Assembly: GCA_035221665.1 (NCBI GenBank)
Contig: CM069145.1
Location: 8,680,001 to 8,744,000 of the forward strand
Origin: Okamejei kenojei
Taxonomy: Eukaryota
Reading direction: 5' to 3'
DNA length: 64,000 nucleotides
The translations under genes and the position numbers were made by a program. Under the pieces are notes generated by a model. It saw only the letters and a program-made list of their open reading frames with translations. It did not search any database and had not been told where the DNA came from. Positions 1,368 through 62,354 of this stretch are shown here, piece by piece. Numbering within the stretch: the stretch's first letter is position 1; each line of letters begins with the position of its first letter.

Positions 1368-1502
1368 CAGTTTGAAGAAGGGTCTCAACCCGAAACGTCA
1401 CCTATTCCTTCTCTCCAGAGATGCCGCCTGTCCTGTTGAGTTACTCCAGCATTTTGTGTCTATCTTTGGTGTAAGCCAGCATCCGCAGTTCCATTATACA
1501 CA
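1368..1502 (+). mobile_element. Short Penelope-like 3'-end repeat with hammerhead motif (C3 mutated)
   Basis: TTGAAGAAGGGTCTCAACCCGAAACGTC followed by the family tail CTCTCCAGAGATG...TTACTCCAGCATTTTGTGTC. Confidence 0.75.
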
Positions 1503-2410
1503 ATAATATGTTGTCCTTGCTTATCCTTTCATTCTTGCTCAGTGTGGATATCATCATATTCTATAACTTTTTAATGTATAACTTTCATACTCATCCTTTT
1601 GACATACTAACCCCTTTAACCTTTAACCAAAACAAACTACTGTCAAATTCCTACCCCACATTTCTCCTAACATCAATTACGTCAAATCCTCCACACCTCA
1701 GACTGAAGATACACTGCTTGAAGAAACAGGTACACAGCATTTGAAAAGTAGCTAAGTGAACACTTGAAATGCCATGGCATATGAAGCCATGGATCATGTC
1801 CTGATAAATGGGACTACTATAGATGGATGTTAGATCGTCTGCATGGGGAGGGTGGGCTGAAGAGCCTGTTTCTGAGATCTACAATAAGCCTCTATGATCT
1901 GTGCCACTCTACTTCCTCACACTCCGCTATTTCATTAACTCTCTGCTAGCACTTGGTACCCACTCCTCAATTCTTGGTTTTACCCCCTTTTTCTTGTAAG
2001 ATCATCTGGCTTGCCATACGCACTGGATCACACTTCTGATCCATTTTGTGAAGAATACTGTGGTGCTTGAGTGCATCCAGTTGTCTTTACAATTTGAGAA
2101 AATGAAATTGGTGGTGGCTCATCCTAGTTCTGGGTGACTCAACATGTGGGCTGTCGCTACTGAGCCATGTTCACCACTCAATGGGCACCAGCTTCTTCCT
2201 CCCTTTACTCCTGAATCTTGGGGATTAATGTCCAGTCATCCTTTCCCGAAGAATCGTTAGGCATGAGAGGATGTAAGTGACGATGATGAGATTGAGAAAT
2301 AGTAGGGAAATTAACTCCGTTCAGTTCAGTTTAGTTTATTGTCACGTGTACCGAGGTACAGTGAAAAGCTTTTGTTGCGTGCTAACCAGTCTGCAGAAAG
2401 ACAATACAAG

Positions 2411-2500
2411 ATTATAAACAAGCCATTTACAGTGTAACATAATTACAAATGAGCCATTAACAGTGGAACATAATTACAAACGAGCCATTCACAGTGTACT
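2411..2500. repeat. Three copies of a ~31-bp tandem repeat within a LINE 3' tail remnant
   Basis: attacaaacgagccatt(t)acagtgtaacata repeated three times. Confidence 0.7.
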
Positions 2501-2787
2501 AACTATCACCCATCACATTTGAGCACAGCACAGGAGGAGGTGGAGATTGGCGAATACCTGGATCCGATCACGTGCCATCTTTTTCATTGCCCATTGCCTT
2601 CAGTTGCCCCCTCTGCCCCCCTGCTCCCCTTTCTCATGTCACACTGGGCATTTCTCCAGGGAAACACAACTCGAGGGCAATCTTTCAAATGCAGCAGAAA
2701 ATAAAAATGGTGTTGCAAAGGTTCAAAATTGCCAGCATAATTATATGGCTTGCTATTGATTAAAATTGATTTAATGTGTTCATACAG

Positions 2788-2859
2788 GAACTACTGGAAG
2801 AAGGAGTTTGCTCCAAGGTTGAAAGTTTGATATGCGATGAGAAGTATAAAGCAAGAAAG
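2788..2859 (+). CDS. DNTT: DNTT internal exon (equivalent to exon 5)
   Basis: catacag| ... AAG|gtaaat; 72 nt, phase 0-0; ELLEEGVCSKVESLICDEKYKARK, continuing in frame from the previous exon. Confidence 0.92.
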
Positions 2860-3116
2860 GTAAATACTAGACAATGGGCGACAGCACAAGGTTCAAATTG
2901 TTTACAGTGATTATAGAGAATGTACTGGGAAATATGAACATGTTGCAGGGCAGCAACCCATTGGAGATATCAGTGGAAAGGAATATCATGTTAGGTGGGC
3001 AACTGGAATGTCTAATAGGTGTTGGTAGGCACTGGAGGAATGTGCGTAACAAATGGGTCGTGTGTTATAGAAAGTGTGTTAAGGATTGAAAGTGTAATAA
3101 ATAATGTTCTCCAAAC

Positions 3117-3505
3117 CAAAGATCTTATAGCGGAGCAAGATAGACCACTCCTGCTAAATGCAATGGGCTGACGTGTAGTACGCAATGGAGCGGGCCTTTT
3201 TTTCATCCAGGTGGACCCGACCTGACTCGCAGTGTAATCTACGATGCGGGGGAAGAGTTTGTGTTAATAAATTATAATTCTGAAAATGAGGAGAAGATTT
3301 TTACCAAATAACTTTTATTTTTACAAGGATGTTTCTGTAACCGGCTTCCGTCTCCGCACTAGTATCTTTGCTCCGCTATGGGATCTTTGGTGCAGAGACA
3401 GAAGCCGGTTACGGAAATGGGGCCGAAAATGACCCATGAATCTGCCCACGACCATACTACGTCTTTTTCGTCGAGTGGTCTATCTTGCTTGCTATAGGAT
3501 CTTTG
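3117..3505. mobile_element. Non-autonomous DNA transposon with 8-bp TSD (hAT or P superfamily)
   Basis: ~33-bp TIRs CAAAGATCTTATAGCGGAGCAAGATAGACCACTC / GAGTGGTCTATCTTGCTTGCTATAGGATCTTTG; perfect TSD CTCCAAAC at 3109-3116 and 3506-3513. Confidence 0.88.
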
Positions 3506-3513
3506 CTCCAAAC

Positions 3514-3770
3514 AGTCTGACTGTCCCCCCGCTTACATTTTACCTCTGTTTGCTTTGTTGTCACCTTCTCATAGCTAACAATGATATATTCTGCATTTTC
3601 TTGAGCTGTATCTCTTTTGATGTCTCGTTTTCACACCTTACCCGTCCTTATCTCCCTCCCCTGATTCTCAGTCTGAAGAAGGGTCTCATCCCAAAACATC
3701 ACCCATTCCTTCTATCCAGAGATGCTGCCTGTCCCATAGAGTTACTCCAGCATTTTCAGTCTATCTTCTG
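3514..3770 (+). mobile_element. Penelope-like 3' end with degenerate hammerhead
   Basis: Longer form of the repeat (ttgtcaccttctc..agctaacaatg) leading into CTGAAGAAGGGTCTC at 3673. Confidence 0.7.
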
Positions 3771-4095
3771 AATAATGTTATGTAATGGGTAAAGTAGCAA
3801 CGGAGGGTAAACATTTGCAGCAAAATTAATACTTCTTATGTCTAATTTATTGAAGCTGAGCACATGGTATATAAAACTATAGAACTTCTGAAATTTAATT
3901 TTGTATGACTCAGAGTTAACATGTTAATAACCATTTCTTTTCAGTTAGTATTAGCCTCCCTGAGAAAGTTTGCATATTTATTCTTAAGACTTCATTATTT
4001 TTGATATTTTGAAGCATTTATAAGAATGTATATAATGGAGCTATGAACCTTAACAGAGCAATTACCTCCAGTCAATGTAAATTATTTTACTGCAG

Positions 4096-4219
4096 CTATT
4101 CACCAGTGTCTTTGGTGTTGGTGTGAAGACAGCTGACAAGTGGTATGGACTAGGCTTTCGGACTTTGGAGGAAATAAAAGCAAGAAAGGATATCACGTTT
4201 ACCAAAATGCAGAGGGCAG
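4096..4219 (+). CDS. DNTT: DNTT internal exon, fingers/HhH (equivalent to exon 6)
   Basis: ttttactgcag| ... GCAG|gtaata; 124 nt, phase 0-1; LFTSVFGVGVKTADKWYGLGFRTLEEIKARKDITFTKMQRA(G), containing the X-family HhH motif GVGxKTA. Confidence 0.94.
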
Positions 4220-4499
4220 GTAATATTTGGAACAGTGAATTGTACATATATTGTGCACAGTATTAACACAATGGGCAAAACCATACTCGCCAATGATTAT
4301 GTTTATTTCAATTCTCTCTTTGCTTCTTCCCTGCCTCTATACGGATTGAGATTAATATGTTGACACCAAGGCAAAGGTCAGCTCAAATTTGCAGCAGTAT
4401 GCATCTGTGTGTTGAGAATTGTGGCAGGTTGGTTTTGAATTTCCTTCCTAATCTTGACACAAGAATGTCATAAACTGATGCTATGAGTTTGCCTTTGTT

Positions 4500-5085
4500 T
4501 TCATAGAAACATAGAAAATAGGTGCAGGAGAAGACCATTTGGCCCATCGATTCATTGTGATCAAGGCTGATCATCCGCAATCAGTAACCTGTGCCTGCCT
4601 TCTCCCCATATCCCTTGAGTCCGCTAGCCCCTAGAGCTTTATCTAACTCTCTTTTAAATTCATTCAGTGAATTGGCTTCTACTGCCTTTTGTGGCAGAGA
4701 ATTCCACAAATTCATAACTCTTTTTCACATCTCAGTTTTAAATGGCCTCCCATTTATTCTTAAACTGTGGCCCCTGGTTCTGGACTCCCCCAACATTGGG
4801 AAATTTTTTCCTGCATCTAGCTTGTCCAGTCTTTTTATAATTTTATACATTTTTATAAGATGCCCTCTCATCCTTCTAAATTCCAGTGAATTACAATCTT
4901 TCCTCATATGACAGTCGCGCCATCCTGGGAATTAACCTCGTGAACCCATGCTGCACTGCCTCAAATAGCAAGGTTGTCCTTCCTCAAATTAGGAGACCAT
5001 AACTTCACTCAATACTTCAGATGTGGTCTCACCAGGGCCCTGTACAACTGCAGAAGGACCTATTTACTCCTATATTCAAATTTTC
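4500..5085 (-). mobile_element. CR1-clade LINE 3' fragment
   Basis: SLEFRRMRGHLIKMYKII..RTRGHSLRI on the minus strand; (catagaaa)n microsatellite tail at 4502. Confidence 0.88.
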
Positions 5086-6654
5086 ATAGAACATTGAACA
5101 GTATAGGCGAGAAACAGGGCCTTCGACCCGCAATGTCTGTGCAAACATGGCAGCAGGTTAATATCCTCTGCCTGCTCTCGATCCACATCCCTGCTTTCCC
5201 TGCACATCCATTTCCTTCAATCATCATCTGCCACCCTTCCCTAGTCATGTTAGTGGAGTCTCAAACATTGGCCTATTTTCTTCTCATTTATCTCAATGGC
5301 CTTTCACATTAGCAAAAACAGAAGAGCTGCTCGAGGAACCCAATGGATCTGACAGCATTTCTGGAGGGAAATCAAAGGTGGTTGACATTGCAGTTTGAGA
5401 TGCTTCATCTACACTGAAAAAGTAGAGGGGAGATAGCCAATATAATGGGGTGTGGGAGGGGGAGGGCAAGAGCTAGCACAATCAGGTGCAGGGGGAACGA
5501 AAGGTAAATATGTTTTGTACCTATTCTAGCCAGCATCTGTATCTCTTGTGCCTTATTTCACCAGGACTGGCTTGCGGAAGTTGACATTGAGCTGGGATAT
5601 TGGCAAGGACACATCAGAGTTCTTTACGCACTCTCTGTTTCCCTGCTCTAGAACATCTTCCATGTAGGCATTGGGATTAATAGACTTAGTGAGATCAATA
5701 ATGTGCTGGTGTATAAGTAGCAGTGTTACTGTGGGAGTGGGCTTGCTCTTGGTGTTTGGAATCCTGCTGTTGGCACCATTCTTCTGCGTTGGCCTCAAAC
5801 AATGACGACCTGCTCAGGGTTGAGATCTTTTTTAACTTGTAATGAGCTCACACTAATGAGGTTTAACATCTTGTGCAGGATGACAGCTTTCATTTTAGTT
5901 TATTTTGTATTATCACATGTGCCGTCGATACAGTTTTTATTGCATGTGATTCAGTCACAGAAAAGACCGTATATGATTACAATCAAGCCAACCACAGTGC
6001 ACAGATAAAGGATAAAAGGTGCAAAATAAAGTCCGATCAAAGATAGTTCTAAGGTCTTCAATGAGGTAGATGGGAAGTCAAGACTGCACCAGCTGGTGAG
6101 AGGACAGTTCAGTTGCTGATAACAGTTGTGAAGAAACTTAAAAATGGAATGATATAGGACTATTAAAAATGGAATGATATCAGACTATAACATGTTCCTA
6201 GACCAAGGGACATAATATGATCTAATAGCTCTTCATGTTTCTTTTCTGATATTGGCTTTAATTTGATGTCGAGCCTTCAATTTCACCAAACAAAAGCACA
6301 GTATTCTGATAGTTTAGTTGACTTTATTCATAGAAAGATCTGATAAAAACAAGAAAATATCACGTAACGATTCCTTTGCTCATTAATTAACAATACACTC
6401 AATTTGTCATTCTTTGACCAAATAAAAGCAAATCAATTATTATAAATATTTAATTGGATATTCTGATAGAAAATTATTATAACAAGGCGTAATACTAATA
6501 ATAAAAGAAAAAATAGCTATTGCCAGTAACTTCAAAGATGTCAACTCCAGACATCAGTCAGCACCGTATGATTTGTTACCTTCTCACCGATGTTCATAGT
6601 TCGGTTAAAATGATTCTTCAAACTAAATAATAGCAGACACCTAAAAGAGACTAA

Positions 6655-6971
6655 AAGCCCTGTTCCACTGTATGAGTTCATTCAAGAGCTCTCCCGAGTT
6701 AAAAAAAAAAATCAAACTTGTGGAAGCACGTAGAATGTACGTAGCGGGTACATCGGAGCTCAGGGACATCCCTTAGCGGCTCGTAATGCAACGGCAGGTA
6801 CTCGGGAAACGCGGTAAGCTCGGGAAGACTCGTGAAGATTTTTCAACATGTTGAAAAATGTCCACAAGAGCCCCGAGTACCGACTAGCGGTCATTACCGT
6901 AAATCTCCGAGTTCGAATCAGGGCAAACTTGGGAGAGCTCTTGAATGAACTTGTATAGTGGGACAGGGCTT
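6655..6971. mobile_element. PIF/Harbinger-type MITE
   Basis: Long TIRs AAGCCCTGTTCCACTGTATGAGTTCATTCAAGAGCTCTCCC / GGGAGAGCTCTTGAATGAACTTGTATAGTGGGACAGGGCTT with TAA/TTA flanks. Confidence 0.82.
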
Positions 6972-8789
6972 TTAGTGACTTTGGTCATCGGCAAAGATCA
7001 ACAATAGAAATATGCAGGTATTAGCCCAGGTCTCGCTTGCTGTAGGAAATTATAAGTTTTTTTTAAACAACTGAAGAAAAAGAGATAGCAATAGAAATAA
7101 ACATATTCATATTATAATATAGTGGAATATAACATTTGTTATTTGACTGATTTGGGCAACAAAATTCCAGCAACTGGAGGCGATACTCCTTGACTATCAA
7201 ACTGGGTAGAAATCAGCGGTGACAGGTCCTGGGTCAACCGGGGACTATCCCCTTTCATTTAAATCTCATGTTAAACAAAAGAGTTGAAGGAGAATATTTA
7301 TTGCACACTGAAATAATGTAGCCCACTTTGAAAGAGTTGACTCAATTTCTCCTATTTAAATAAATCATACTGCCATTGAGTGAGGAAATGTTGACCCAAT
7401 CTCCCTCATCACTACAGCACTCATCCATGCCCACCACTCTCATGCCCTTTACCTCACCAAAGAAACCATTTCTGGGTGTGGCCCATAGACCTTAAACACG
7501 GCCAGCCCAGAACACACTGTAGAGTCTGAAGAAGGCTCTTGACCCGATACGTCACCCATTCCTTCTCTCCAGAGATGCTGCCTGTCATGCTGAATTACTC
7601 CGGCATTTTGTGTGTATCTTCGGTGTAAACAGGCATCTACAGTTCCTTCTGTAGATGTAGTTGTAGATGTAGCTCCAATATCTTTATTTATTGCAAGGCA
7701 AAATTTGAATCTAGACTTGAGAGAATGAAAACCAACTGCTGGACAGCTATAATAATGGCTGACAATGTGGAAGTAATAGAGTTGCCATCCAAACTTAGAA
7801 ATCAGACTTCCAGCCCCTTCCTGAAATGGTATTTACTGTTCTTTGTAGCTTAAAGAGGATGGAGGAAAGATTGAAGTCTGCTCCTTGTAGATGTTACTAA
7901 AACTGGCATTTTACCTAGACAAATGAGGTGAGAGTTATATTCCAGCCTTTCCCATTCTGACAAAAAAGTCTTCAAACTGAGTATTTTGTGCATTTTCCTC
8001 TACTTCAGAATTCCAGCAACTGCCATAGTTTGTATCTCACAGCTCTGGCATTGTTTCTCCTGGTCTCTTCTCTATTCTAATTCATCTCCTCGTCTTTACA
8101 TTTCCTCCAGGCAGCCCAGCCACAATGAACAAGCCTTCACCTCCCTCTCTCTAGCGGGTATCATCTTCGCTATCGCTTGTTCTCCAACCTTTCATACCAA
8201 TTCCCTTTGTACTTTCCATTCCCTTTCCTTCATTCCTTTCTCTTCTCCATTCTCTCCTTCCTTCACATGTTTGGTTTCCAATTTCACTCAGTTCTGATGA
8301 AAGATCATTAACCTGTAACAAAGGTCACATGAACTTTTATGACCTCTCAAAGGTCATTACCTCTCAAAGGCCCATTAAATGTTTCTCTTCCTGCTGATAC
8401 TGCCAAAACGTCTGAGTATTTACAGCTTTTCTTTTTCAAGTCCGATTTTTAGTCCCTGCACCATTTTGCTTTTTGAGATTTACATTCCAGCGCATCGTAG
8501 GGATTTTAACATCCCCACATTGTGCAGCTGTAAGCTCTTGGGGAAAGTCCCAGACCATCGATATCAAATCAGGAAGTGAAGAGATGTGGCACAGTTCCAT
8601 ATACTTTGGAAATATTTAACTGATCTTGGCTTTGTGCTGCTGTAACCATAACATGAAACCTCCGTGTTACCTGGTGTATGACCAGCAGACGTACGTGTGG
8701 TTGGCAATGGTGTAATTCTCTGGAGACTGTTGCAACACTATGACCACCTTGAGATCCATCCAGGGATCCAAGCCCAAACCTAAAGGAGA

Positions 8790-9045
8790 TGGGGAGACAT
8801 TTCTTTAGTCAGAGGGTGGTGAATCTGTGGAATTCTTTGCCATAGAAGGCTGTAGATGCCAAGTCAGTGGATATTATTAAGGCAGAGATAGATTGATTTT
8901 TGATTAGTACAGATGTCAGAGATTATGGGGAGAAGGCAGGAGAATGGGGTTAGGAAGGTGAGATAGATCAGTCATGAATGAATGGCGGAGTAGACTTGAA
9001 GGGCCGATTGATCTAATTCTACTCCTATCACTTATGAACTTATGA
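8790..9045 (+). mobile_element. CR1 LINE 3' fragment
   Basis: FFSQRVVNLWNSL-coding sequence plus the CR1 3'UTR shared with other copies. Confidence 0.8.
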
Positions 9046-10206
9046 CCTTATACCCTAAATCCTGCTGCTATATTCACTGAAGTGTGCTGTGGAGAAAGGT
9101 GGCCTGTTGCGGTTCCCACTGATGTATCCCGTGCATTTGTGCATGGCGTTATGGCGTTACGGGAATCTGCAGGAATATAGATTTCACTACTTTTGAAAGA
9201 ACACTTCAATCAGAAGCAAATGGTTAACAGCTGTACCTCGGTACACGCGACAATAAACTAAACTGAAACTGCACATATTCTCATATTGTTTCTCTCAAAA
9301 TAAAAGGAAGCAATTTGCCACATCAAGTCAATGTCGACTCTCCGACCAACCCCATCAAACCCAGTCCCTGCTTATTTTCCAATAACCTATTCTCTCTCTC
9401 CCATGCCAATTAACACCATACTGATTCACTTGCCACCCACTTCCACTCAGGGGTAAATTACAGTACCCAGTTAGTCTACCCACCGGAACATTTTTGATTG
9501 AAGAAGGGTCTCGACCCGAAACATCACCCATTCCTTCTCTGCAGAGATGCTGCCTGTCCCGCTGAGTTACTCCAGCTTTTTGTGTCTATTTTCAGTTTAA
9601 ATCAACATCTACGGTTCCTTCCTACACGGGACATCTCTGGGTAGTGGGAGGACGCTGGAGCACTTGGTGAAAACCCACGCGGTCGCAGGCAGAAGATGCA
9701 AACTCCACACAAACAGCACCAGGATCAGGATTAAAGCCTGGTAGCAGGAGCTGTGAGGCATCTGCAATTCCTGCTGCTCTAATACCTGTCACCCTACTGC
9801 CCTCCCAGCTTCAATCATGTCCTTGCCTGGATCTTCAGCAACAAACCTCATGCAATGCCAGAATATCTAGTGGGGGGGGGGGTCAGATAACCAACTGCGA
9901 CCAAACCGATCAAACCATAATTACCTCATTGTGTGGCTAAATATTTACCACACCTTTGACTGCAGGAGGCATTAGCATTGTTGCTGAAAGTTGATATATG
10001 CTATAGAGACTCTGCAGATAATGCCCTCTCATTTAAACTTAATGGCTTCAGTGTGAACTCATGATATTGCATATCCTTTGGCTTGACTCCATTATCTGAA
10101 GCATGGACCAACACTGCCATATTCATGCAGTTCAGTTTACATTCCCTGCATACTTGCTTCTCTAAAGATGAAAACGTTTCATGCAAAACTGGATAAATTA
10201 AATCAC

Positions 10207-10445
10207 ATGTAGGCAAAAATGCTGGAGAAACTCAGCGGGCGAGGCAGCATCTATGGAGCGAAGGAAATAGGAACCGTTTCGGGTCGAAACATTGGCTACA
10301 TTCCTTCACTGAGTCTGAAGAAGGGTTTCGACCCAAAACATTGCCTATTTCCTTCACTCCATAGATGCTGTCTCACCCGCTGAATTTCTCCAGCATTTTT
10401 TTGTCTACCTTTGATTTTCCAGCATCTGCAGTTCCTTCTTGAAAA
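10207..10445. mobile_element. Inverted pair of short Penelope-like hammerhead repeats
   Basis: Minus-strand copy ~10210-10290 and plus-strand copy ~10312-10445 form an imperfect palindrome. Confidence 0.75.
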
Positions 10446-11344: not shown

Positions 11345-11643
11345 AAAGGCCTGTGTTTCTCATGTATTTGTGTTATCACCTTCCCCACAGCAACAATGGA
11401 CCATTGTGGGCTCAACATTGCCTTGGTCATCTGGCCGCTTTGATTTGTTCTTTTCATACTTTTCATTCTTTTGTTCTTTGTACCTTTTCTTACCTCTAGT
11501 TTCCCTCTCCCCCGACTCTCAGTCTGAAGAAGGGTCTCGACCCGAAACATCACCTTTTCCTTTTCTCCAGAGTCCCACTGAGTTATTCCAGTATTTTGTA
11601 TCTATCTTTGGTGTAAACCAGCACTTGCAGTTCCTTCCTACAC
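11345..11643 (+). mobile_element. Penelope-like 3' end with hammerhead motif
   Basis: CTGAAGAAGGGTCTCGACCCGAAACATC at 11524. Confidence 0.75.
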
Positions 11644-12412
11644 TGATTGACCGTGTACTTGCCTGTTTGTTGATGTGCATTCTGAAGTAATGATGATTTT
11701 TATTATTTTTCAAGTGTTTTAAGTATTATTTGTTCTGATTTGATTCTTATTTTTGGAATGTATATTTGAATGTCAAATTTTAATTTCAGCAGCTGGCTGT
11801 TTTGCATTCTTAGGCATAATTGGGAACCTCAGTGACACTGAGGACATTTCAGGTCGTGTGTAAAGTCTGAACTAGGCAGAGGAGATCAGCTGCTCTCATG
11901 TCTCTGGATGTTCTGGGTGGTGGACGCTTCCACCTATTGTGACCTGGAATTTGCCCTGATGTTTCTAAGTCTTGGTATCATCCATTAATTACCAGAGATC
12001 CTGGGTCAAATCCAGGAATTTCCCATGTACATCTTTTGGATTGGAGATGTTTGGCAGTAAGATGTGATGCCTTTCATTGGTATCATGCTTGTACACTGTA
12101 TGCAGACACATAATTACATAGCATTGTTGTCTTTCATAAATGGGCTAAATGTTCCTGCCCATATCATTTTAAAAACTACTGTTCATATTGTACACAACTG
12201 GATTATTTCCCAAAAAATGCACAAAGTGCTGGAGTAATTTAGCAGGTCAGTCAGCATCCCCGGAGAACATGGGTAGAAGAAGGGTCCCGACCCGAAACAT
12301 CACCTCTCCATGTTCTCCAGAGATGCTGCCTGACCTGTTGAGTTACTCCAGTACTGCGTCTTTTTTTGTAAACCTGCACCTGCCTACAAGCATATGCTTA
12401 CATCTGTTTATA

Positions 12413-13400
12413 AGAATGATCCCACGAATGAGTAGGTTAACCTATGATGAGTGTTTGTCGGCACTGGGCCTGTACTCACTGGAGTTTAGGAAAGCGAGGG
12501 GGGGACCTCATTGAAACATATAGAAAAGTGAAAGGCTTGGATCGAGTGGATGTGAGAGGATGTTTCCACTAGTGGAAGAGTCTAGGACTAGAGGTCATAG
12601 CTTCAGAATTAAAGGACGTTATTTAAGGAAGAAGATGAAGAGAGATTTATTTAGACAATAGACAATAGACAATAGGTGCAGGAATAGGCCATTCGGCCCT
12701 TTGAGCCAGCACCGCCATTCAATGTGATCATGGCTGATCATCCCCAATCAGTACCCCGTTCCTGCCTTCTCCCCATATCCCCTGACTCTGCTATTTTTAT
12801 GAGCCCTATCTAGCTCTCTCTTGAAAACATCCAGAGAACCTGTCTCCATCACCCTCTGAGGCAGAGAATTCCACAGACTCACCACTCTCTGTGAGAAAAA
12901 GTGTTTCATCGTCTCCATTCTAAATGGCTTGCTCCTTATTCTTAAACTGTGGCCCCTGGTTTTGGTCCCCCCCAACATCGGGAACATGTTTCCTGCCTCT
13001 AGTGTGTCCAAGCCCTTAACAATCTTATATGCTTCTATGAGATCCCCTCTCATCCTTATAAATTCCAGTGTGTACAAGCCCAGCTGCTCTATTCTCTCAG
13101 CATATGACAGTCCCACTATCCCCGGAATTAACCTTGTGTCGTGTGCACGTATCAAGTAACCAAGTACACGATCGACTTTAGTCAGAGGGTGGTGAATTTG
13201 TAGAATTCTTTGCCACAGAAGGTTGTGGAGGCCAAGTCAGTGGATATTTTTAAGGTAGAGATAGATAGATTCTTGATTAGTACAGGTATCAGAGGTTATG
13301 GGGAGAAGGCAGGAGAATGGGGTTAGGTGAGATAGATCAGCCATGATTGTATGGCGGAGTAGACTTGATGGGCCGAATTGCCTAAGTCTACTCCTATCAT
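12413..13400 (+). mobile_element. CR1 fragment (+) with a nested younger CR1 (-) at ~12655-13137
   Basis: Host copy breaks at ..atttatttag| and resumes at tttagtcagagggtggtg; nested copy has an (agacaat)n tail and ORF 12748-13155 (RMRGDLIE..RGHSLRI). Confidence 0.85.
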
Positions 13401-15665: not shown

Positions 15666-16049
15666 ATGTGTAGGAAGGAACAGCAGATGCTACATTAAAC
15701 CAAAGATAGACACAAAATGCTGGAGTAACTCAGCGGGTCAGGCAGCATCTCTGGCTTTAAGGAATGGGTGATGTTTCGGGTTGAGACCCTTCTTCAGACC
15801 TTCCTGAACTTTTACCGATTCTCAGCAGTTTATTTTACTCCTCCTTGCAAAGTTTTCAGCTCCAGCTGTTTAAGGCACGGAGCATATAGTAAAATAACTC
15901 CCTAAATTGAATGAAAATATCCTTAAAATATTTATGAGTAAAATTCCCTTTGACAATAAGAGGTTGTTGATGCTGTCTTCAAAATGGTGTGTGTGTGTGT
16001 GCGCGCAGTTTTTCTGCTGACAGTTCAATGCAGAACACCTATAGTGGGT

Positions 16050-26948: not shown

Positions 26949-26981
26949 GGTCTGAAGAGGGTCTTGACCCGAAACGTCACC
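26949..26981 (+). ncRNA. Minimal type I hammerhead ribozyme motif (PLE type), intact core
   Basis: GGT-CTGAAGA-GGGTC-TT-GACCC-GAAA-CG-TC-ACC: 3-bp stem I, 5-bp stem II and palindromic ACGT stem III. Confidence 0.75.
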
Positions 26982-47115: not shown

Positions 47116-47734
47116 CTGAGGGACAGAATATTGTGCAGGTGCTATTCCAGCCTGACTAAGTTATGAGAGGGAATGAATTTCTTGATTTTTAAATGATTTC
47201 CTGCCTGTAATGCACCCACTACAATGCTCCAAAGTTAAGAAATGTATAACGGAGGAAGCTTCATCAGTGGCAGCGACATCATCACAATGATTTCTCAGCA
47301 TTCCCTGAAGTATCATTCACCGCAATCAAATGGTTCCATTATTACAGAAAAGTGCACTGATTAAAGCTTCCATTACTGATCTGGGAACATTATCCATACA
47401 ATTGCCTATCTCTGCAATGCCCAAACCCAGAACTCTAAGTGTGTGACACTTTTGGCGACATCACCACGGCACTGGTCCACCTACTGAGGAGTAGTCCTGA
47501 ATAATCCTTTATCGGTTAGACCAGCGAGAAAGGGAAATGTGTGTTAATCCTTGATCTCGACAAATCAATATTACCACATTGAGCACCATGATATAAATAA
47601 TAATTTGTACAATCATATGGACATAGAATGATGATGAACACTTAAAAATATCGAACGTTCTCTGCTGTCATGCCGTCCATCGTCCAAATGTAAGGCATTG
47701 TGTAGAATTAGACCATGTCGGCCCAATCATAGCA

Positions 47735-48340: not shown

Positions 48341-49077
48341 CTTGTGTAGGAGAGAACTGCAGATGTTGGTTTAAATCGAAGGTAGACACAAAATGCTGGA
48401 GTAACTCAGCGGGACAGGCAACATCTCTGGAGAGAAGGAATGGGTGACGTCTCGACCCGATACCTCACCCATTCCTTCTCTCCAGAGATGTTGCCAGTCC
48501 CACTGAGTTACTCCAGCATTTTGTGTTTACATGCCATATACCTTCTTCACCACTCTATCTACTTGCGTTGCCAGTCTGGAAGTGGAACAAATGAAGGTGG
48601 CTGCCCATTCTACGGAAACATTTTACCTTCTGTGGAGAAATCACCTACAATATTTTCTTATATTTTCAAGGAAGACATTTGAACTTTGACTGTGTAGAAA
48701 ATCTTGATGCCTCTGCTCAGAATACTGGCAGCGTGTACACTGTCTTACACATCCAGTTGGCGTGACTCTGTGGTGATTAACTTACTTAGCTTCAAGCCTA
48801 GATCTGCGTGCCATTATTGTCCAATCTGGCTTTCCAAAAATGACTGACTGAATGTCAGGTCCAGGGGAAGACTCTGCTTCCCCCTGGTGGTGTGGAGAAT
48901 TCCACATCTGAAAGAATAAAAGGCACCGACTCATAAAAGCTGATGGAAGAGATCACCCTTTCAGCTGGACCAGAGGAGGTCCAGGGAGGGCCTGGATGGG
49001 CTCGGTGGCTGGATGAAGGGCAGAGTGTGGGGTACTTGGGCTGTAGAATGCTTGTGAGCACTTCCACCAAGAGGAGA

Positions 49078-49895
49078 GATGCACAGCACCTCATATTTCA
49101 CTTGGGCAGCTTACACCCCAGCGGTATGAATATTGACTTCTCTAACTTCAAGTAACCCTTGCTTTCCCTCTCTCTCTAGCCCTCCCCCATCCTAGCTCTG
49201 CAACCAGTCTGGCTGTCCCCCAGACCAATGTTAGCTCTGTATGCTTTGTTGTCACCTTCTCCGAGCTAACAATAATTGATTTTACATTTTCCTTGACCGT
49301 CATCTCCTTTGATGTTTCGTTTTCACACCTCAAGGGCCTGTCCCACTTAGGTAATTGTTTAGGTTAGGCCAGCGACTAGGCTGTTGCCATATGGTCACCG
49401 GGGTGTTGCCTGTATGGTCGTGAGCAGTCTCCTCAATCGCCCAAAGAGTCGTAGCGTCTTTCTGGTCGTCGCTGGATTTTGAAATGTTCAAACCTTTTCG
49501 GCGACAGTCGGCGACCGTGGTCTTGTCATAGCTTGTCTTCTCCTGATAGAGGTGCTGTCGTAGGTTGTCGCCAGGATGACGTAGGTGTTGCCGGTGCTGA
49601 CTTCTGCGAATTCCATAGTCGTAGTCGCCAGCAGTCGTCTACAAAATCGCCTGAGTGGGACAGGCCCAGTAGTCCAGTCGCCGGTTTTTCAGCAACCTGC
49701 TACGACTATGACAGTCGCTGGCAATCGCCTCAAAAATTGCCTAATGGGACAGGCTCTTTACTCTCCCTTATCTCGGTGTTGCTCTCTCCCCTAACTTTTA
49801 GTCTGAAGAAGGGTCTTGACCCGAAACGCTACCCATTCCTTCTATCCAGAGATGCTGCCTGTCCCGCTGAGTTACTCCAGCATTTTGTTTCCATC
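49078..49895 (+). mobile_element. Penelope-like 3' end (GIY-YIG tail plus hammerhead) interrupted by a Harbinger MITE at 49333-49757
   Basis: QHLIFHLGSLHPSGMNIDFSNFK*; MITE with AGGGCCTGTCCCACT TIR; PLE resumes and reaches CTGAAGAAGGGTCTTGACCCGAAAC at 49803. Confidence 0.82.
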
Positions 49896-51532
49896 TGCTG
49901 ATGTTCTGAGATTGGAGTGCCCTTATGAGCTCTGTAATGCAAGTGGAACTCTATTAGGGTCCAGACATATTACAGGTTGTGTCCCCACTGTGAGCCAGAT
50001 TGTTCACCTGCCATTATAGCTTCTGTACTAACAAGATGGTCTCCTCCAACATCTTTGCGGCCTTCTCCCTGATGCATGTGGTGTGATCCTAGGTGTCAGC
50101 TGGCAGAACAGGAATAGGTTCCCAAAGAACAAGCTAACAGAGTACTGACTGAAGCAGCCACTGAGGCATGAAGAATTCGGATGGCCTATGCCCTTGCCTC
50201 GAAAGAAGCTGAACCCTGCTCCATCACCTACAGTCTTGGGGGATGTCAACACCCCTGGCTTCAAGATTATTGTACTCCAAGTGCTGCATGAAATTAGAGT
50301 CATGTAGTCAGAGGGCTTCAGATGAACTCATCCATGCCGACCAAGTTCTGAACAAGGTAGACAAAAATGCTGGAGAAACTGAGCGGGTGAGGCAGCTTAT
50401 ATGGAGCGAAGGAAATAGGCACCGTTTTTTCTTCAGGGTTTTGGCCCGAAACATTGCCTATTTCCTTTGCTCCAAAAATGCTGCCTCACCCGCTGAGTTT
50501 CTCCAGCATTTTTGTCTACCTTCGATTGTCCAGAATCTGCAGTTCCTTTTTAAATAAAAAAGTTCTGAATAAGTCCCATTTGCCTATATTTGGTGCATAT
50601 TGGAGTGAGACCAGGCTGGTTGAGCGAAATGGTTTTTGTTAACAAAACACAAACAAATGCTTGAAAAAACGCATACTTAGTCTAGCTAACGGATACAGCT
50701 CCTGTCGACGCGAGGAGCGCTAATTACTAACTAAAAGCCCACGAACGAACACCCGCCCCATGAGCCTAGGGGCCCCATGCTAATCTATGTATTGTAGAAC
50801 ATGAAAACGGAGAAGAACATCGCAAGTGCATGACGGCATATTTGATTCGGCATAAAGAAACTGGATGTGTAGGGGTCCCAGTGCACTGCTTTGCCCGGGG
50901 GCCTCTAATGCTGTTAATACGGCCCTGATCTGCAGTTCTTTCCTACACAATAGTTCAAGCATATACATTTTACACCCCTCACACCTTTCGCTTCTAAGAC
51001 CAAACCCTTGTGTATCTCTTCTTCCAGAGAGCTGGGACTTTGCCAGGAGTGATGGCTGCACTGGAGCATGTGCTGGTAATGATGCTCTGACTGATGCAGT
51101 GAGCAAAAGCTCATTCTTTCTCTAAGTGGCAACTACAGTTTGGGCAACAGAGTCGGACATTTGGTAACGTTTGGGGATGAATTTTCAAGTAACTCTGTCA
51201 GTGGAAAGTGCTGACTTTAAGTGGCTGAAGAGATATCCTGCTGCTTACTCTGCTCAATTTGGATCATGTCATCACTGGAATTCAGTTCCGTTTAAGTTAA
51301 CGTAAGTAAAGCATCATATAGGCTCCTATCTGCAAGGATATCTCTTCACTTTACTGGGACAGGTGTTGTAATTTTGTCCTGTTTTTTCCCTGTTTTTTCC
51401 CCTACTGTCCCTACTACAATCAGTCTGAAGAAGGGTCTTGACCCCAAATGTCACCTATCCATTTTCTCCAGAGATGCGATCTGACCAGCTGAGTTACTCC
51501 AGCATATCGCACCTATTTTTGCTGTACTTACA

Positions 51533-53998: not shown

Positions 53999-54250
53999 GC
54001 GTAGGAAGGAACTGCAGATGCTGGTTTGCGCCAGTAAGCTCCAAAGGTATGAGCAGATTCATCCAAAGATAGACACAAAATGCTGGAGTACTTCAGTGGG
54101 GCAGTCAGCATCTCTGGAGAGAAGGAATAGGTGATGTTTCAGGTCAAAACCAGGGTCTGAAGAAGAGTCTCGACCAGAAACGTCACCCATTTCTTCTCTC
54201 CAGAGATGCTGCCTGACCCGCTGAGGTGCTCCAGCATTTTGTGTCCATCT
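53999..54250. mobile_element. Inverted Penelope-like repeat pair with 14-bp TSD
   Basis: TGGATGAATCTGCT at 53985-53998 and 54251-54264. Confidence 0.82.
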
Positions 54251-54829
54251 TGGATGAATCTGCTCATACCTTTGGAGCTTACTGACGTAACCAACGATTC
54301 TACTGCTGGCCAATGTTGCTGCTTTATGTGAAGAACCTTGTTCTCTATTTTCTTCATGCTATAACATTGCTTTGCTACTCTTGAGGCATCAAATCCCAAT
54401 CTTGATAAGAATGTATTATCAATAGATTCCTTTGTGATATAGTTGCATAAGCAAACCAAGTGAAGTAGCTATAAAACATATGCCTTTAACTGAAGGCAAT
54501 AACTCACAACTAGACTGCAATGTCTGGTGCAGTGATGCATCAAAGTCTTATCACACAACACACTCATTCCTTAAAGGTAGACTGGAGGGAATACGAGGAG
54601 GTGCCGGCCAGGAAGCGTCATGGCTCTTTGTCTGCATGTCCTTTGTTCAATGTGTGTGAGTGTATGATATGTGAGTTAATGAGAAGGTTGAAAGTTGTGA
54701 GGAGTATAGGAGAGTTGAGGAGATAGCTGCAGAGGTGGGGTATGTGTCAGTGTGTGAGGTGGCGTCTCAGAGATATGATCAATGTGACTGCCTGTGCTTC
54801 AAGGCAATAAAGGTGAGATACACTTCTAA

Positions 54830-55262: not shown

Positions 55263-55819
55263 AGGCCCTGTCCCACTTACGAGTAATTTGGCATGCAAAT
55301 TACGCGACCTCGTCATCGCGTTGAGGCACACGGGCATAGTGTGGCCGCGCTGGGCCGATCCCACTGAGAAGCGTGGAGGGGTATGGAGTTGCGCGTGGTA
55401 TCGCGCGGCGCTCTAAAATGTTGCTGCGAATTAAATCTTTGCGCGCCACCGGCCTGTCGCATAACTGACGGCCAAAGTGGGACAGGCCCAAGACCCTGAT
55501 ACAATGAAATGTCTCACCTCCAACAGCAGCAGAAGCAGGCAAACGATCGCGAATGGAAGATGTTTCGGGTCAAGACCCTTCTTTCAGATTGAAGAAGGGT
55601 CTCGACCCGAAACATCACCCATTCCTTCTCTCCAGAGATGCTGCCGGTCCCTCTGAGTTACTCCGGCATTTTGTGTCCATTTTCAAATGACGTCACGCGC
55701 TCCAAACGGCTGTGCAGACGCATGAAGTCACGCGTGACCTTCGCGGGACTGTCGTGCCTCAACGTGACCACGAGGTCACGTAATTAGCGTGCCAAGGACA
55801 CGTAAGTGTGTCAGGGGCT
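55263..55819. mobile_element. PIF/Harbinger-type MITE with internal TIR copy and nested PLE repeat (~55553-55685)
   Basis: AGGCCCTGTCCCACTTACG / CGTAAGTGTGTCAGGGGCT with ~65-bp inverted arms; internal AGTGGGACAGGCCC near 55476. Confidence 0.8.
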
Positions 55820-56460: not shown

Positions 56461-57760
56461 AAACATATTCCTTCTCAGGTGCTTTTTGATCATTTTATCA
56501 CTTATCTTCATTAAGGGGTAATTTACAATAGCAAATGAACATCCCAGCCTGTTTTTTCACTGTGGGTGGCATTCGAGAAACCAGAATACAGTAAAGGTTG
56601 TCACAGAAAGAGTTGTGGCAAGGACCAGGATATCAGTTTGCAAGTGCTCGGTGCTCAGCCCATGGTTACAGATCAGTTGCAGAGGGAGGAAGCGTTTGTC
56701 AATGATAAATTATGTGGAGCACGCAGATAATGAGCCAGTAGCCAATGAGCAGAAACAAGTGGTGATGGGGAGAAAGGACAAGCTTCACTCAGACAGCGGC
56801 AGAGGTAAGTATTGAACCTGTGACTCTGGTCAGACTACTGGGCCAGCCAGCTGCTTTGTGAAATAGTGCAATGTCATCACATGTGACAGCAAACCATCCT
56901 TGCAATATCAGTTGAAACATTCTGGAACAACCACTGCTCGATTTCCCAAGAGTCAGTTTCTTTCTGCTGGTTGGCCCTGAGTTTGTAGTCTTTATTTTCG
57001 TTCTCTTCTTTGTGTTCTGTGCCTGCCTTGCGCTCTCTCCCACTCCACGAGCCTCACCTCAATTTAAAATTTAGACTTCCTTCTGGCATTGTTTTAACAA
57101 ATCATGAATTTTAAACGAGTGCGAGCCGTTTCTCTGCTACATGTCTCCTGGGAGAGTGGGCATTGCTCGGATTTTCTGGAGCCTTGATTTCAACTTAATT
57201 ATTTTTGAGTAGTTTTGTTAGGGCACTTATTTCTCGTGTCATTGGCAGTAACTAATGCCCTTGGGATTCAAACCATCGATCTGTTCTTAGATATTGCACA
57301 AACAGAACACAGGGCTGCCTGCTTGGTGACAGGCACTTCTAGTGAGTCACTGAAAATAATTCTTCAACGCAGGATGCTTTGAATAGGAAGTGGAGACGTG
57401 ATTAATTGGAGCAAAACAGTGTGTCGCCGGTGGGTTTTGTTATACACTGGCCCAGCATGAATACATGGTGAAAATGGAATGGGTTGGATGCTTACTGACA
57501 CACATAGTTGAAGTGATCCATTTCCACCAACTTGCTACAAGGTGGATAAGGGAGGAGGGTCCTGAGGAAAATACCATGGTTGAATCAAAAATCAAACTTT
57601 TTGTGGGTCAGACAGTCGCTGTGGTAGCAAAGAGATGGATGTTCGGGTCAACACCCTGCATCTACAGCATCTTGTTTCTCCCAAGTTAAATAAAAGAAGG
57701 AAGACCAAAAATGCTGGAGAAACTCAACGGGTGAGGCAGCATCTATGGAGTGAAGGAATG

Positions 57761-57794
57761 GGTGACGTTTCGGGTCGAGACCCTTCTTCAGACC
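57761..57794 (-). ncRNA. Minimal hammerhead ribozyme motif, intact core, within PLE repeat 57697-57794
   Basis: Minus strand GGT-CTGAAGA-A-GGGTC-TC-GACCC-GAAA-CG-TC-ACC. Confidence 0.75.
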
Positions 57795-58311: not shown

Positions 58312-60065
58312 TGTATATTACTAAAAGTAAGACCTTGACCACTTCCTGTTTTCCTGTTTCATGATTTTTGAAAAAACGGCTATGATTGTTGGCCATCTTA
58401 CTCAGTCCCCATCCGCTGCGCAGGACAATAAGAATGTTCCTATCGATGAAAAATAAAAGAGTTATTAATGTTTAAAAAATGTTGACATTCTCGCTGTTGC
58501 CCCTGCTGGTGGGAGGGGAAAGGAACTATAAAACCCGGAAGTGTTGTGCCGCACTCAGTCTGTGCAAGATGGAGGAAGCGAGAGTCTTGATGGAGGAAGC
58601 GAGAGTCAAGATGGAGGAAGCGAGACCCTTGCTCACGTCTCTCGGAGCATAACACTGAATACATGTCTACTCAACTGTGAGTGCCCTTAATGTGGTTTGA
58701 AAATGAAAATGTGGTTGCATTGAAAATGGTTGTTGGTGGTAGTAACTACTTTGAAATGCTGCACTGCAAACGGTTGTTGGTGGTGGCAACGGCTTTGAAA
58801 TGCTGCACTGCAAACGGTTGTTGGTGGTGGTAACTTGACAACATCCTGTTTGCACTGTATATTGATTTTAGATAAAACGCTACCACTTACGGCTGTGATT
58901 TTTGGCCATCTTACTCAGCCCCCCTCCGCTCATCAGGTGCAGAGGATTCTTCCCATCAATGAAAAATAAAAGTGTTATTAGTGTTAAATGTTGAGAATCT
59001 CTCTCCTGTCAATCACGCCATGAAAGCTACGCCCCTTCCGGTGGGAGGGGGTAGTGATTATAAAACCCAGAAGTGTGGGTGTGGCTCAGTCTCTGCAAGA
59101 TGGGGGAGGGAGAGGTCACGACTCTGTCTGAGCTGTGAATCAACTGAAATCACTGAATGTCTACTGAACTGTGAGTGTGGTGTTTATGCGTGTTTTGTGT
59201 GGTTTTATGGTGGTTTATGGTAGTTTCACCCTGCTTGAAATGGTATGAAACTGCATTTGAATTTGGTGATCTTGCACCCTACATGAAATGGTATGAAACT
59301 GCACTTGAATTTGGTGGTCTTGCACCCTGCTTGAAGTGGTCGGAAAATACACTTGGATTTGGTGGCCTTGCACCCTGCTTGAAGTGGCATGAAACTGCAC
59401 TTGAGTGGTGGCCCTGCACCCTGCTTGAAGTGGTAGGAAAGTGCACTTGAGTTCGCTCGCCCTGCACCCTGCTTGAAGTGGTAGGAAACTGCACATGAAT
59501 TTGGTGGCCTTGCACCCTGCTTGAAGTGGTATGAAACTGCACTTGAATTCGGTGACCTTGCACCCTGCTTGATGTGGTAGGAAACTGCAACTGAATTTGG
59601 TGGCCTTGCATTCTGCTTGAAGTGGTATGAAACTGCAATTTAATTTGGTGGCCTTGCACCCTGCTTGAAGTGGTAAGAAACTGCACTTGAATTTGGTGGC
59701 CTTGCACCCTGCTTGAAATGGTAGGAAACTGCATTTGAATTTGGTGGCCTTGCACCCTGCTTGAAATGGAATTTCAAGGAATAGCCGTGAGTCAACTGCT
59801 CGCCCACCAGCCGTGAGTGAGCTGCCAGCACATCAGGCTTGAGTGACTGAGCTGTCACCCAAAGAATCCATTTGGCCCACAATGTCCATACTAGCTCTCT
59901 GGAAACCAGTCCCTTCAGCCCTCAATACCCATACTAGCGCTCCAGAAAGCCCCCCCCCCCCCCAACTGGCCATCAATATTAGAATTGGTAGAGAGGTGGA
60001 ATATTGCGTTGGGGGACCAGCCCTCCGATGTTAACATGGGACCCAACGGGTCCCACTTAGTCTAG
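58312..60065 (+). mobile_element. Non-autonomous Helitron 1
   Basis: 5' A|TGTATATTACTAAAAG (TC mutated to TG); 3' hairpin TGGGACCC-AAC-GGGTCCCA then CTTAGTCTAG|T; no TSD. Confidence 0.82.
59227..59769. repeat. 48-bp minisatellite, about 11 copies, inside Helitron 1
   Basis: CACCCTGCTTGAAGTGGTA(G/T)GAAACTGCACTTGAATTTGGTGGCCTTG units; 16-aa periodicity in the ORF track. Confidence 0.95.
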
Positions 60066-60067
60066 TA

Positions 60068-61958
60068 TCTATATACTTTTGAAACTCTGTGTGTGTGTGG
60101 GTGTATGTCATTTTTCATTTTGCCTTTGATTTTGCCTTTGATTTGTTACTCCGCAAAAACCAGACGCAAAAGCGCCGAGATTTTTACCTTTTACATTCGC
60201 AAATCCACTCCTTATTAAATTTAGTCATTTTTCTGTACACATTTTTAATAAAATCCTTCACAAAACCTACTAAATTCTTTGAATCAGCGGGTGCCGACGT
60301 CACAATGCCCTTATGCTTGTGGCACCGCCACCCGCTCTCTATTCACGAAGACGCTGTGATCGCACTTTCAATCACCCCCCCCACCCCATTCAGTCATTTT
60401 TTCGCCTCCCGCTGGCCACATTCTTATTGCGTGCCCCGCATGACGATAACGGCTACTGCCGCCCGGCTCTCCACCACTATCCCTCTCCCCCCCCCCGGCC
60501 TGGCTCTGTAACGCTGGCGGAAGCCACAGATTGGCTGGTACCCCCTGCTGCTTTTCGCCGTCCCATCTGGTGGACTCGGGATCATGCCCGCCCACTCCGC
60601 CTGCCCACTCTGCCCGCTCCAACCACCCCCCCTCCCCGTACTCGGGGTCTGAAGCGCCGAGGATGCGAGGCCATGGAGCTGAGGCTCATTCTGAGGCCGA
60701 CGGCTGCTGGGCGGCCCCATCCTTCTACTCCCTCCCTTCTTCCCCCTCCCTTCTCCCCTCCCCTCTCTCCCCTCCACCCTTTCTCCCCCTCCCCTCTCTC
60801 CCCCCTCGCTCTCTCCCCCCCTCTCTCTCTCTCTCCCCCCTCTCTCTCGATCGGCCGGCCATCTGCTGCTTTTGATCAACCGCCCTGCTCGCACCAGCAG
60901 GGTCGCCCGCTCAAAAAAATGCCGCAAATCGGAAACCCCAGCTCCAAAAGGCAGGAAGTTCCCCTGCCTCTGTGTCCCTCTCTGTGTGTCCCTCTCTGTG
61001 TGTCCCTCTCTGTGTGCCTCCATTACCCTCTCTGTGTGTGCCTCCATGTCCCTCCGTGACCCTCTCTGTGTGGCTTTGTGCTCCTCTCTGTGTGGCTCCG
61101 TGCCCCTCTCTGTGTGCCTCTGTGTGCCTCTGTGTCCTTCTCTGTGCCTCCGTGTCCTTCTCTGTGCCTCCGTGCCCCTCTCTGTGTGCCTCCATGCCCC
61201 TCTCTGTGCCCCTCTCTGTGCCTCTGTGTCCTTCTCTGTGCCTCCGTGTCCTTCTCTGTGCCTCCGTGTCCTTCTCTGTGCCTCCGTGCCCCTCTCTGTG
61301 TGCCTCCGTGACCCTCTCTGTGTGCCTCCGTGACCCTCTCTGTGTGCCTCCGTGACCCTCTCTGTGTGCCTCTGTGTCCCTCTCTGTGCCTCCGTGTCTC
61401 CCCCTCTGTGCCTCCGTGTCTCCCCCTCTGTGCCTCCGTGTCTCCCCCTCTGTGCCTCCGTGTCTCTCTCTGTGCCTCTGTGTCTCTCTCTGTGCCTCTG
61501 TGTCTCTCTCTGTGCCTCTGTGTGTCTCTCTCTGTGCCTCCGTGTCTCTCTCTGTGTGCCTCCGTGTCTCTCTCTGTGTGCCTCTGTGTCCCTCTCTGTG
61601 CCTCCGTGTCTCTCTCTGTGCCTCCGTGTCTCTCTCTGTGCCTCTGTGTCTCCCTCTCTGTGCCTCTGTCTCCCTCTCTGTGCCTTCGTCTCCCTCTCTG
61701 TGCCTCCGTCTCCCCCTCCGTGCCTGCGAATTGGGGGCTATATGTGAGTGGATAGGGCAGGGCATGGGGTAAAAGGAGTGAATTAATAATATTAATATAA
61801 TATCAATGGGGGTGGTTAGTGTGTGTGTGTGAGGGGTGGTTAGCTTGTATGTGTGTGTGAAAGGTTGGTTATTGTGTGTGTGTGATGCCTCAGGCCACCC
61901 CCTCCCCTCGCAACTGTGCGTTGAAGGAACAGACCCAACGGGTCTGCACTTGGTCTAG
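60068..61958 (+). mobile_element. Non-autonomous Helitron 2
   Basis: 5' A|TCTATATACT; 3' hairpin CAGACCC-AAC-GGGTCTG (61930-61946) then CACTTGGTCTAG|T; inserted between A and T. Confidence 0.87.
60965..61722. repeat. Complex CT/GT-rich micro/minisatellite inside Helitron 2
   Basis: Variants of CTCTGTGCCTCCGTGTC(TC)n. Confidence 0.95.
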
Positions 61959-62354
61959 TTCTTTTCTAAAAATGAAGAGTCCTTGGTCAAATAAAGCTAG
62001 TGCAGTGAGTTATGACTGGTGCCAAGATATCAGTTCACAAGTTCTCGATGCATTGCCTGTGGTTACAAAGCAGTTGTACATAATGCAGATGTTTATCAGT
62101 TATAAATAGTGTGGAGCACACAAGGCAATGTGCAAGTTGCAGCTCAGGAGAACACAGATAGGTGGCATTTTGGGTTGGGACCCTTCTTTAGGCTGATTGT
62201 GGGAGCTGGTGGAGGGGGGGGGTTGAAAGGGAAAGCTGGAGGAGAGGCGGGACATGAAAAAATGTGGCTGAACCTAGACCAACACAGGTGTGGAGAGTTC
62301 ATTGATAGGCAGATGGTTGGATAAAGGCCAGAGATGAAAGATAAGTGGGGAGTC

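Follow-up and report, generated by a model that had tools for sequence, protein, structure and literature searches.

The question raised by a 64,000-nucleotide stretch of the genome of the cartilaginous fish Okamejei kenojei (GCA_035221665.1, contig CM069145.1, positions 8,680,001 to 8,744,000 of the forward strand; hereafter the window, in whose coordinates all features are given) is what the many short repeats with the core of a minimal hammerhead ribozyme are, and how they came to be there. The initial annotation of this DNA had described about 30 such repeats, roughly one per 2 kb, and had assigned them to a very large non-autonomous family derived from a Penelope-like element (PLE). The answer proposed here, to which we give a probability of roughly 0.8, is that the repeats are 100- to 130-bp pieces of the pseudo-long terminal repeat (pLTR) of an endonuclease-bearing (EN+) PLE, likely inserted by the reverse transcriptase (RT) and GIY-YIG endonuclease protein of the full-length element, and that they owe their hammerhead to the master elements, with the motif disrupted in most copies and probably idle in the rest. 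The association of PLEs with hammerheads is itself not new; minimal hammerheads (min-HHRs) were described in the pLTRs of metazoan PLEs by Cervera and De la Pena in 2014 (PMC4209133; review, PMC6765202).

A profile model built from fetched copies gave 45 matches in the window at E≤0.01 and 130 matches in a sample of 40 stretches of 10 kb, taken at round coordinates from the larger contigs; the same profile found nothing in the reversed window and the reversed sample. At 30 bits or more the window holds 39 copies, 16 of which are arranged head-to-head, corresponding to approximately 31 insertion events. The density of about one copy per 1.6 kb bears out the earlier estimate, and the motif is present at all 16 of the short-repeat positions that had been listed. 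The genome sample is sparser than the window, with 100 copies of at least 30 bits per 400 kb and 10 of the 40 stretches without any copy, and its extrapolation puts the genome total at about 690,000 copies (bootstrap 490,000 to 900,000). A strict secondary-structure descriptor matched seven times in the window and never in the reversed control, and the exact 33-base core occurs 10,108 times across the 2.76-Gb assembly (reversed control, 0). Short copies are far commoner than long ones.

The connection with a complete element was first apparent at one exact-core locus, which has an RT, a Cys-rich linker and a GIY-YIG domain directly upstream of the motif. Of the 37,643 candidates from the first look of an RT search, 150 were scored, and 20 copies with long open frames were examined; in 19 of these the repeat unit, referred to below as the module, lies a few hundred bases past the endonuclease. 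Walking in the 5' direction placed a module upstream of the open reading frame (ORF) at 11 of 30 loci, and in 8 of these 11 full-length candidates there is one at each end, 3.8 to 4.0 kb apart. The Penelope origin claimed earlier is supported by these copies, and a full-length partner with RT and GIY-YIG is now at hand in the 4-kb element L163, which has the module at both ends, a 1,178-amino-acid open frame, terminal repeats identical at 179 of 179 bp and a 12-bp target duplication. The motif is upstream of the ORF, with C3 of the hammerhead 163 nt from the ATG. A second locus, L162, is a tandem of units that are 99.5% identical. These units, the identical terminal repeats of L163 and the low divergence of the youngest subfamily given below speak for a young element.

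The element protein gives weak Pfam matches to RVT_1 (E = 4.5e-4) and GIY-YIG (E = 0.0027), both below the curated cut-offs, whereas 1,198 protein relatives with the same domains were found at E≤1e-50; the closest named one is from bamboo shark (69% identity), and others are from turtle, corals and snails. A sequence search of the PDB with the PLE protein returned no match. Between the RT and the endonuclease, the L163 protein (P0003) has a C-X4-C-X2-C linker. A CX2-5CxxC linker is common to Neptune and Nematis (PMC8557442), and the element probably belongs to the Neptune clade (or to Nematis) as judged from this linker. A single ORF with an RT plus a C-terminal GIY-YIG domain, partial tandems that form the pLTRs, inverted 5'-truncated copies and an optional tail were all found, which is the standard anatomy of EN+ PLEs (PMC8557442, PMC3846280). 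P0003 differs from most of its EN+ relatives, which have about 800 to 950 amino acids, in a long Pro/His/Ser-rich low-complexity insert (residues ~160 to 450) between the N-terminal region and the RT.

Three further observations concern the full-length copies. Most of the young ones (L071-L090 and L161-L171) are interrupted by single-base insertions or deletions in runs of C, possibly errors of the long-read assembly and not real frameshifts. One near-full-length young PLE (L085, G000:C17:26236000-26245900) lies just past the stop codon of a gene that resembles IL-17 by eye. At 4 of 10 loci in the first 3 Mb of contig C1, the stretch of the module that follows the hammerhead (seed-model columns 45-97) forms a 54-bp minisatellite of up to six units (L004, 1158-1319; L005, 2005-2263; L006, 1822-2151; L008, 377-795), which could result from repeated re-priming or slippage of the RT.

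The first 35 bases of the module comprise, in order, the 5' strand of helix I, the CUGANGA box, an extra A, helix II with its tetraloop, GAAA, the palindromic C-G, U16.1, H17 and the 3' strand of helix I. Helix I has 2 bp, or 3 bp where a G precedes the copy. Helix II consists of 4 bp and a 4-nt loop; the 5-bp stem II of the initial annotation would leave a loop of 2 nt and is not retained. On the other hand, the minimal type I architecture described there, with its CUGANGA/GAAA core and extra A, holds in this parse and in comparison with the published consensus of PLE hammerheads, with which the motif shares the extra base between positions 9 and 10.1, the G10.1-C11.1 pair, the palindromic C-G at 15.2/16.2, the absence of helix III and apparently the short helix I (PMC4209133).

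Six subfamilies with median divergences from 1.2% (youngest) to 22% were obtained when 437 copies were clustered on 12 tail columns only, which is a coarse clustering and not a tree. The core (C3-A9, G12-A14, A15.1-U16.1 and H17) is invariant across the six subfamily majorities. With sets of constrained and permissive columns that we picked from hammerhead theory, the subfamilies differ from each other in 0 of 25 constrained and 4 of 7 permissive columns (Fisher p=0.001), the four being two bases of loop II, position 17 (C or U) and position 1.1 (A or G, either of which pairs with U2.1). An older family, recovered by relaxed patterns (400 matches against 6 in the control), has U at N7 in 16 of 24 copies; its loop II is longer and its helix I altered, with about 4 bp in the majority sequence and U-A instead of G-C as the second pair, although the 3' strand of this helix is partly fixed by the search pattern. 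The hammerhead thus appears to have been kept by selection on the master elements, and it would be expected to cut only as a protein-assisted dimer.

Among the 26 window copies that cover the motif, 9 keep the 11 core bases and H17, and 8 of these also keep helix II; the complete motif is present in 3 (26950, 39793 and 57793). In the sample, the core is intact in 22 of 73 copies and the motif is complete in 9. Most copies had been thought to be disabled by CpG decay of the ACGT palindrome, and this stands in part: most are decayed and the palindrome has been lost to CpG decay in 10 of the 26, but G12, which also lies in a CpG, has been lost in 9 and is the least conserved core base (62%). A core no more conserved than its flanks had been named as evidence against a ribozyme, and the outcome is divided. 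In the genomic copies, conservation is 93.5% for the non-CpG core and likewise 93.5% for the best tail blocks (selected after the data had been seen), but 85.6% for the whole tail; this comparison is uninformative on function because inserted copies decay neutrally. A second motif on the same strand within 500 bp accompanies 10 of 103 motif-bearing copies and none in the window, and it is very unlikely that the window copies cut host RNA.

How the short copies arose can be approached from their ends, which were taken from 90 exact-core copies on one contig and from 124 copies in the window and the 40 sampled stretches. The 3' ends fall into two classes, one at columns 93-106 of the 121-column model and the other at or beyond column 119. 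Upstream of the motif, 38 of the 90 exact-core copies run on into a pyrimidine-rich region, 37 are solo, 14 are inverted and 1 is tandem, and homology to the upstream untranslated region is absent in 52. The 5' ends lie within 8 nt of the motif edge in 41 of the 90, compared with 31 of 150 under a null model of uniform truncation; the observed number disagrees with uniform truncation and agrees with a null model that has the ends at -2 to -4. Provided that the 52 ends are all located within 8 nt, the stop rate is approximately 7% per nt at the edge, as against 0.9% per nt further upstream, and the same pile-up was observed in 91 copies from the window and the sample. Only 2 of the 124 copies start at the cleavage site and the copies span it; their templates were thus likely uncut RNA.

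The region upstream of the motif is about 90 to 240 nt long, depending on the subfamily, and nearly always ends in YCAGT. Of 113 junctions, nearly all have a pyrimidine tract and YAG ahead of the motif, and some subfamilies have donor-like sites at the stop codon. We take YCAGT at the motif edge to resemble an initiator or a 3' splice site, both on consensus sequences assumed here, and the palindrome, +28 to +32 relative to the initiator-like A, would presumably be downstream-promoter-like; since the old family has a spacing that differs by 2 nt, this is a lead only. No spliced genomic copy that joins the endonuclease end to the motif was found among the examined loci, the single near match being an internal deletion, and of about 115 joints in public RNA contigs, the 15 listed include none of the GT-AG type. 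Four public RNA contig sets cover the tandem junction with a module depth about a thousandfold above that of the 5' part of the ORF; two of these sets are flagged as probably DNA, and contigs cannot show ends, strand or level.

From these ends the following course may be proposed. The RT would initiate inside the RNA at two tail sites; in the Poseidon element of Anolis carolinensis (PAc), the optional tail marks two internal RT start sites in vitro (PMC11167929). Reverse transcription would usually give very short cDNA from uncut RNA that spans the cleavage site. More than half of the young copies stop 2 to 8 nt upstream of C3, and the simplest explanation would be a template RNA whose 5' end is at that point. 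That the pile-up marks a transcript start at the motif edge is conceivable at somewhat less than even odds. Tentatively, the short copies may be seen as integrated cDNAs similar to "strong-stop" products, made by the Neptune RT on the 5' pLTR of capped, uncut RNA from a start at a tail site to run-off about 100 or 130 nt later.

Several observations weigh against the account given so far, and they are taken here together with the alternatives. An Rfam search of the window returned no hammerhead at E≤5, and monomer folding was no better than that of shuffled sequences (z 0.18 to 0.89), which would suit a chance likeness of an unrelated repeat to a hammerhead. Against this stand the position in the pLTR, the agreement with the published consensus down to the extra base and the palindrome, and the excess of matches over the control in the older family; the explanation is largely refuted because the motif closes 19 of 20 RT copies and both ends of 8 of 11 and only permissive positions vary, and it is left with a very small probability. 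It is also rather doubtful, if less so, that the hammerhead is vestigial even in active masters and that its sequence has been kept as an internal promoter or a protein-binding site. Helix I, with about 4 bp in the old family, is down to 2 bp in the youngest subfamily, where one U-G and one G-C pair remain; the tail is as conserved as the core; and only 5 of 44 non-diagnostic columns downstream differ among subfamilies, so that the constraint is not ribozyme-specific. In three young cases the active double-hammerhead fold is predicted at -6 to -13 kcal/mol, 15 to 20 kcal/mol above alternative dimers (-22 to -29 kcal/mol), in an energy model that leaves out tertiary contacts and protein. Moreover, PAc with a mutated hammerhead is still able to insert in vitro (PMC11167929), and 8 of 9 Xenopus dimers tested were without cleavage (bioRxiv 10.64898/2026.07.22.740005). 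However, the subfamilies differ exactly at positions that a hammerhead tolerates, with 17 staying C or U and 1.1 staying pairable, 2-bp helices I are known among published PLE hammerheads (PMC4209133), and PAc does cleave once its own protein is added (PMC11167929). The open frame of L163 reads CIDD where other copies read YIDD, which is a further point against the account. As for a separate non-autonomous element, either SINE-like (like a short interspersed nuclear element) or a retrozyme, with its own short RNA that is transcribed, cleaves itself and is mobilised in trans, the fixed 5' and 3' ends of the short copies and their great excess over long ones would agree with it, as would plausible target duplications in 11 of 74 solo copies (two internal duplications having been dropped) and in 6 of 37 of a second set, compared with about 2% in the control; pLTR-derived retrozymes have also been reported in vertebrates, including the one chondrichthyan sampled (bioRxiv 10.64898/2026.07.22.740005). 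Endonuclease-linked members, however, occur in every subfamily (1 to 49 per cluster), a single young copy in 90 is preceded by a tandem unit, the window has no 100- to 130-bp tandem array, and copy ends at the cleavage site are confined to the 2 of 124. With all six subfamilies endonuclease-linked, tandems rare and ends unlike cleavage products, the short copies are read as by-products of successive PLE masters, and an element of their own is improbable; of the very large non-autonomous family proposed initially, the very large copy number stands and the separate status is not supported.

For the 5' pile-up, the competing possibility, which we would not put quite at even odds, is a truncation hotspot: an RT that copies long RNA from the 3' pLTR would stall or jump where the folded motif meets the pyrimidine tract, or the endonuclease would resolve an intermediate there. 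The 5' ends are spread over about 7 nt, from -2 to -8 from C3, and not placed at one base; truncation in general is steep, at the rate given above; many head-to-head junctions lie in the motif or at its edge; and the tract with its YAG resembles a 3' splice site in all subfamilies and could bind proteins. An extra G before the first templated base, considered as a cap signature, was present in 17 of 22 and 14 of 23 cases of a first set (9 of 12 and 8 of 15 among solo copies), but this was not replicated in a second set (5 of 14 and 3 of 8, p about 0.36) and is not relied on. Also to be weighed against the account as a whole are the origin of the 90 young exact-core copies, which are consecutive and all within the first 13 Mb of one contig, the public RNA (all 20 runs found, at the level of contigs only), in which ends and cleavage are not readable, and Drosophila Penelope, in which the start site precedes by 46 bp a 75-bp intron that extends to the hammerhead (PMC2377424, PMC4209133). 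On the other hand, a hotspot would have to act upstream of helix II, where the hairpin has already been passed, and at the same position despite upstream regions that differ in length and sequence, and the edge that it would share matches the initiator-like YCAGT, as we read that consensus.

The nearest of the min-HHRs listed by Cervera and De la Pena is that of a Neptune element of Acropora digitifera, which has nearly the same build, and as in other min-HHRs the motif is located at both ends of full-length elements and mostly in dispersed single or opposite-strand copies (PMC4209133). The hundreds of thousands of copies differ from the 2,000 to 9,000 descriptor hits of that survey, as do the weaker helix I of the youngest subfamily and the low variety of the motif; O. 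kenojei is not in its table or alignment, and its supplement file 2 has no cartilaginous fish. The RT-linker-GIY-YIG ORF, the partial tandems, the inverted truncated copies, the optional tail of 30 to 40 bp and the target duplications of 7 to 14 bp are similar to those of the EN+ PLEs Neptune and Nematis (PMC8557442, PMC3846280), unlike which no microsatellite targeting was seen here and module-only copies are in extreme excess. PAc (Frangieh et al. 2024, PMC11167929) likewise has a hammerhead in the pLTR, two preferred 3' ends and in vitro evidence for uncut RNA as template, but it belongs to a different clade, its ORF starts inside helix II instead of 163 nt downstream of C3, and the available part of that paper does not describe a 5' pile-up at the motif edge. 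Non-LTR retrozymes (PMC7229834; bioRxiv 10.64898/2026.07.22.740005) are also non-coding and pLTR-derived, have a type I hammerhead and exist in part as dispersed monomers; they are defined, however, by tandem units that each have a hammerhead, whereas the modules here are solo or head-to-head. A literature search, with most subscription journals, Repbase and Dfam outside it, turned up no publication about this family in cartilaginous fish and none that treats solo pLTRs as strong-stop products, and the supplements of bioRxiv 10.64898/2026.07.22.740005 may list the family.

In the window, the solo modules are in different states. The module at 1368-1489 (+) has the motif, a full tail and an 11-bp target-site duplication, with C3 mutated, and lies in an intron of a gene resembling terminal deoxynucleotidyl transferase (TdT). 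The A13-A14 box is broken at 7523-7643 (+), the copy at 9499-9613 (+) starts inside the core, and that at 15681-15799 (-) has a full tail and a decayed palindrome. All core positions, both helices and the palindrome are present at 26950-27047 (+), without the extra A between 9 and 10.1. The young module at 39793-39891 (+) shares 96% identity with the full-length element across 100 bp and has a complete motif, a 10-bp target-site duplication and the short 3' end. A copy of the U17 subfamily at 42112-42205 (-) has a mutated A13, the one at 45475-45558 (+) starts at C3 and has a deletion in the tail, and the one at 57697-57793 (-) has a complete motif, a 3-bp helix I and a 7-bp flanking duplication. 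A young module with a mutated A13 follows an inverted tail fragment at 41789-41934 (+), an older-subfamily module at 51421-51525 (+) has lost G12, a module with a short inverted arm occupies 55551-55686, and the last copy, at 62134-62194 (-), is a decayed partial module.

Head-to-head pairs are present at 10200-10432 (10200-10290 on the minus and 10312-10432 on the plus strand), at 12206-12383, where the minus arm is without a hammerhead, at 16828-17050, with the junction at the 5' edge of the motif, at 27453-27636 (decayed), at 28002-28222 (older subfamily), at 46922-47119 (a long hairpin), at 48356-48531, with the fold-back inside helix II, at 50354-50543, where both arms start inside the core, and at 54054-54259, where the plus arm has the core and a broken helix II. 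The Rfam matches obtained in the window were chance microRNA-hairpin hits on such pairs and were rejected.

Parts of the element beyond the module survive at few sites. A partial 3' untranslated region precedes the module 3669-3768, with G12 and the palindrome decayed, at 3506-3768 (+), and a module with a decayed palindrome follows the pyrimidine-rich untranslated region at 11491-11631 (+). The longest remnant (18350-19082, +) consists of an inverted untranslated-region arm (18350-18570), a frameshifted GIY-YIG C-terminus (18516-18684), untranslated region and the module (18955-19076). At 49069-49897 (+), a GIY-YIG C-terminus (49069-49155) is followed by untranslated region, split by an unrelated insertion, and the module (49800-49897). 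These are the only two endonuclease C-termini in the window, and both long copies that the initial annotation had joined to GIY-YIG (18530 and 49080) do contain it; in the second, the motif at 49800 is separated from it by the insertion, which by eye is about 430 bp long. This insertion (~49331-49757) has inverted ends and resembles a miniature inverted-repeat transposable element.

Other features of the window include exons of the TdT-like gene at 895-1170 (+) and 4081-4263 (+), between which the modules at 1368 and 3669 lie on the sense strand. A Gypsy-type long terminal repeat retrotransposon has left a pol remnant at 23373-26506 (-), which occupies two frames and includes domains of the protease, RT, RNase H and integrase. 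Remnants that we read as DIRS-like are found at 28566-31209 (+) and 37657-38187 (-), with a gag-like ORF, an RT, an RNase H-like ORF and a separate tyrosine recombinase fragment. RT fragments of long interspersed nuclear elements are located at 12748-13236 (-), 42633-43460 (-) and 21092-21604 (-); they look CR1/L2-like by eye, and two that were scanned with Pfam gave no match. Minisatellites with 48-bp and 20- to 22-bp units are located at 59227-59769 and 61047-61725.

The motif itself is ordinary for a PLE, and the value of the family is in its scale and in the anatomy of a young, near-intact vertebrate element, which, alongside that of the anole, is readily available for in vitro work. The fixed ends of hundreds of thousands of copies are a natural record that can tell where PLE RNA begins, where it starts to be copied and whether cut RNA is used. 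If the short copies are indeed strong-stop-like products, they would form a huge fossil map of PLE transcription starts, at the 5' edge of the hammerhead, and of RT initiation sites, and mobilisation in vivo would bypass ribozyme cleavage.

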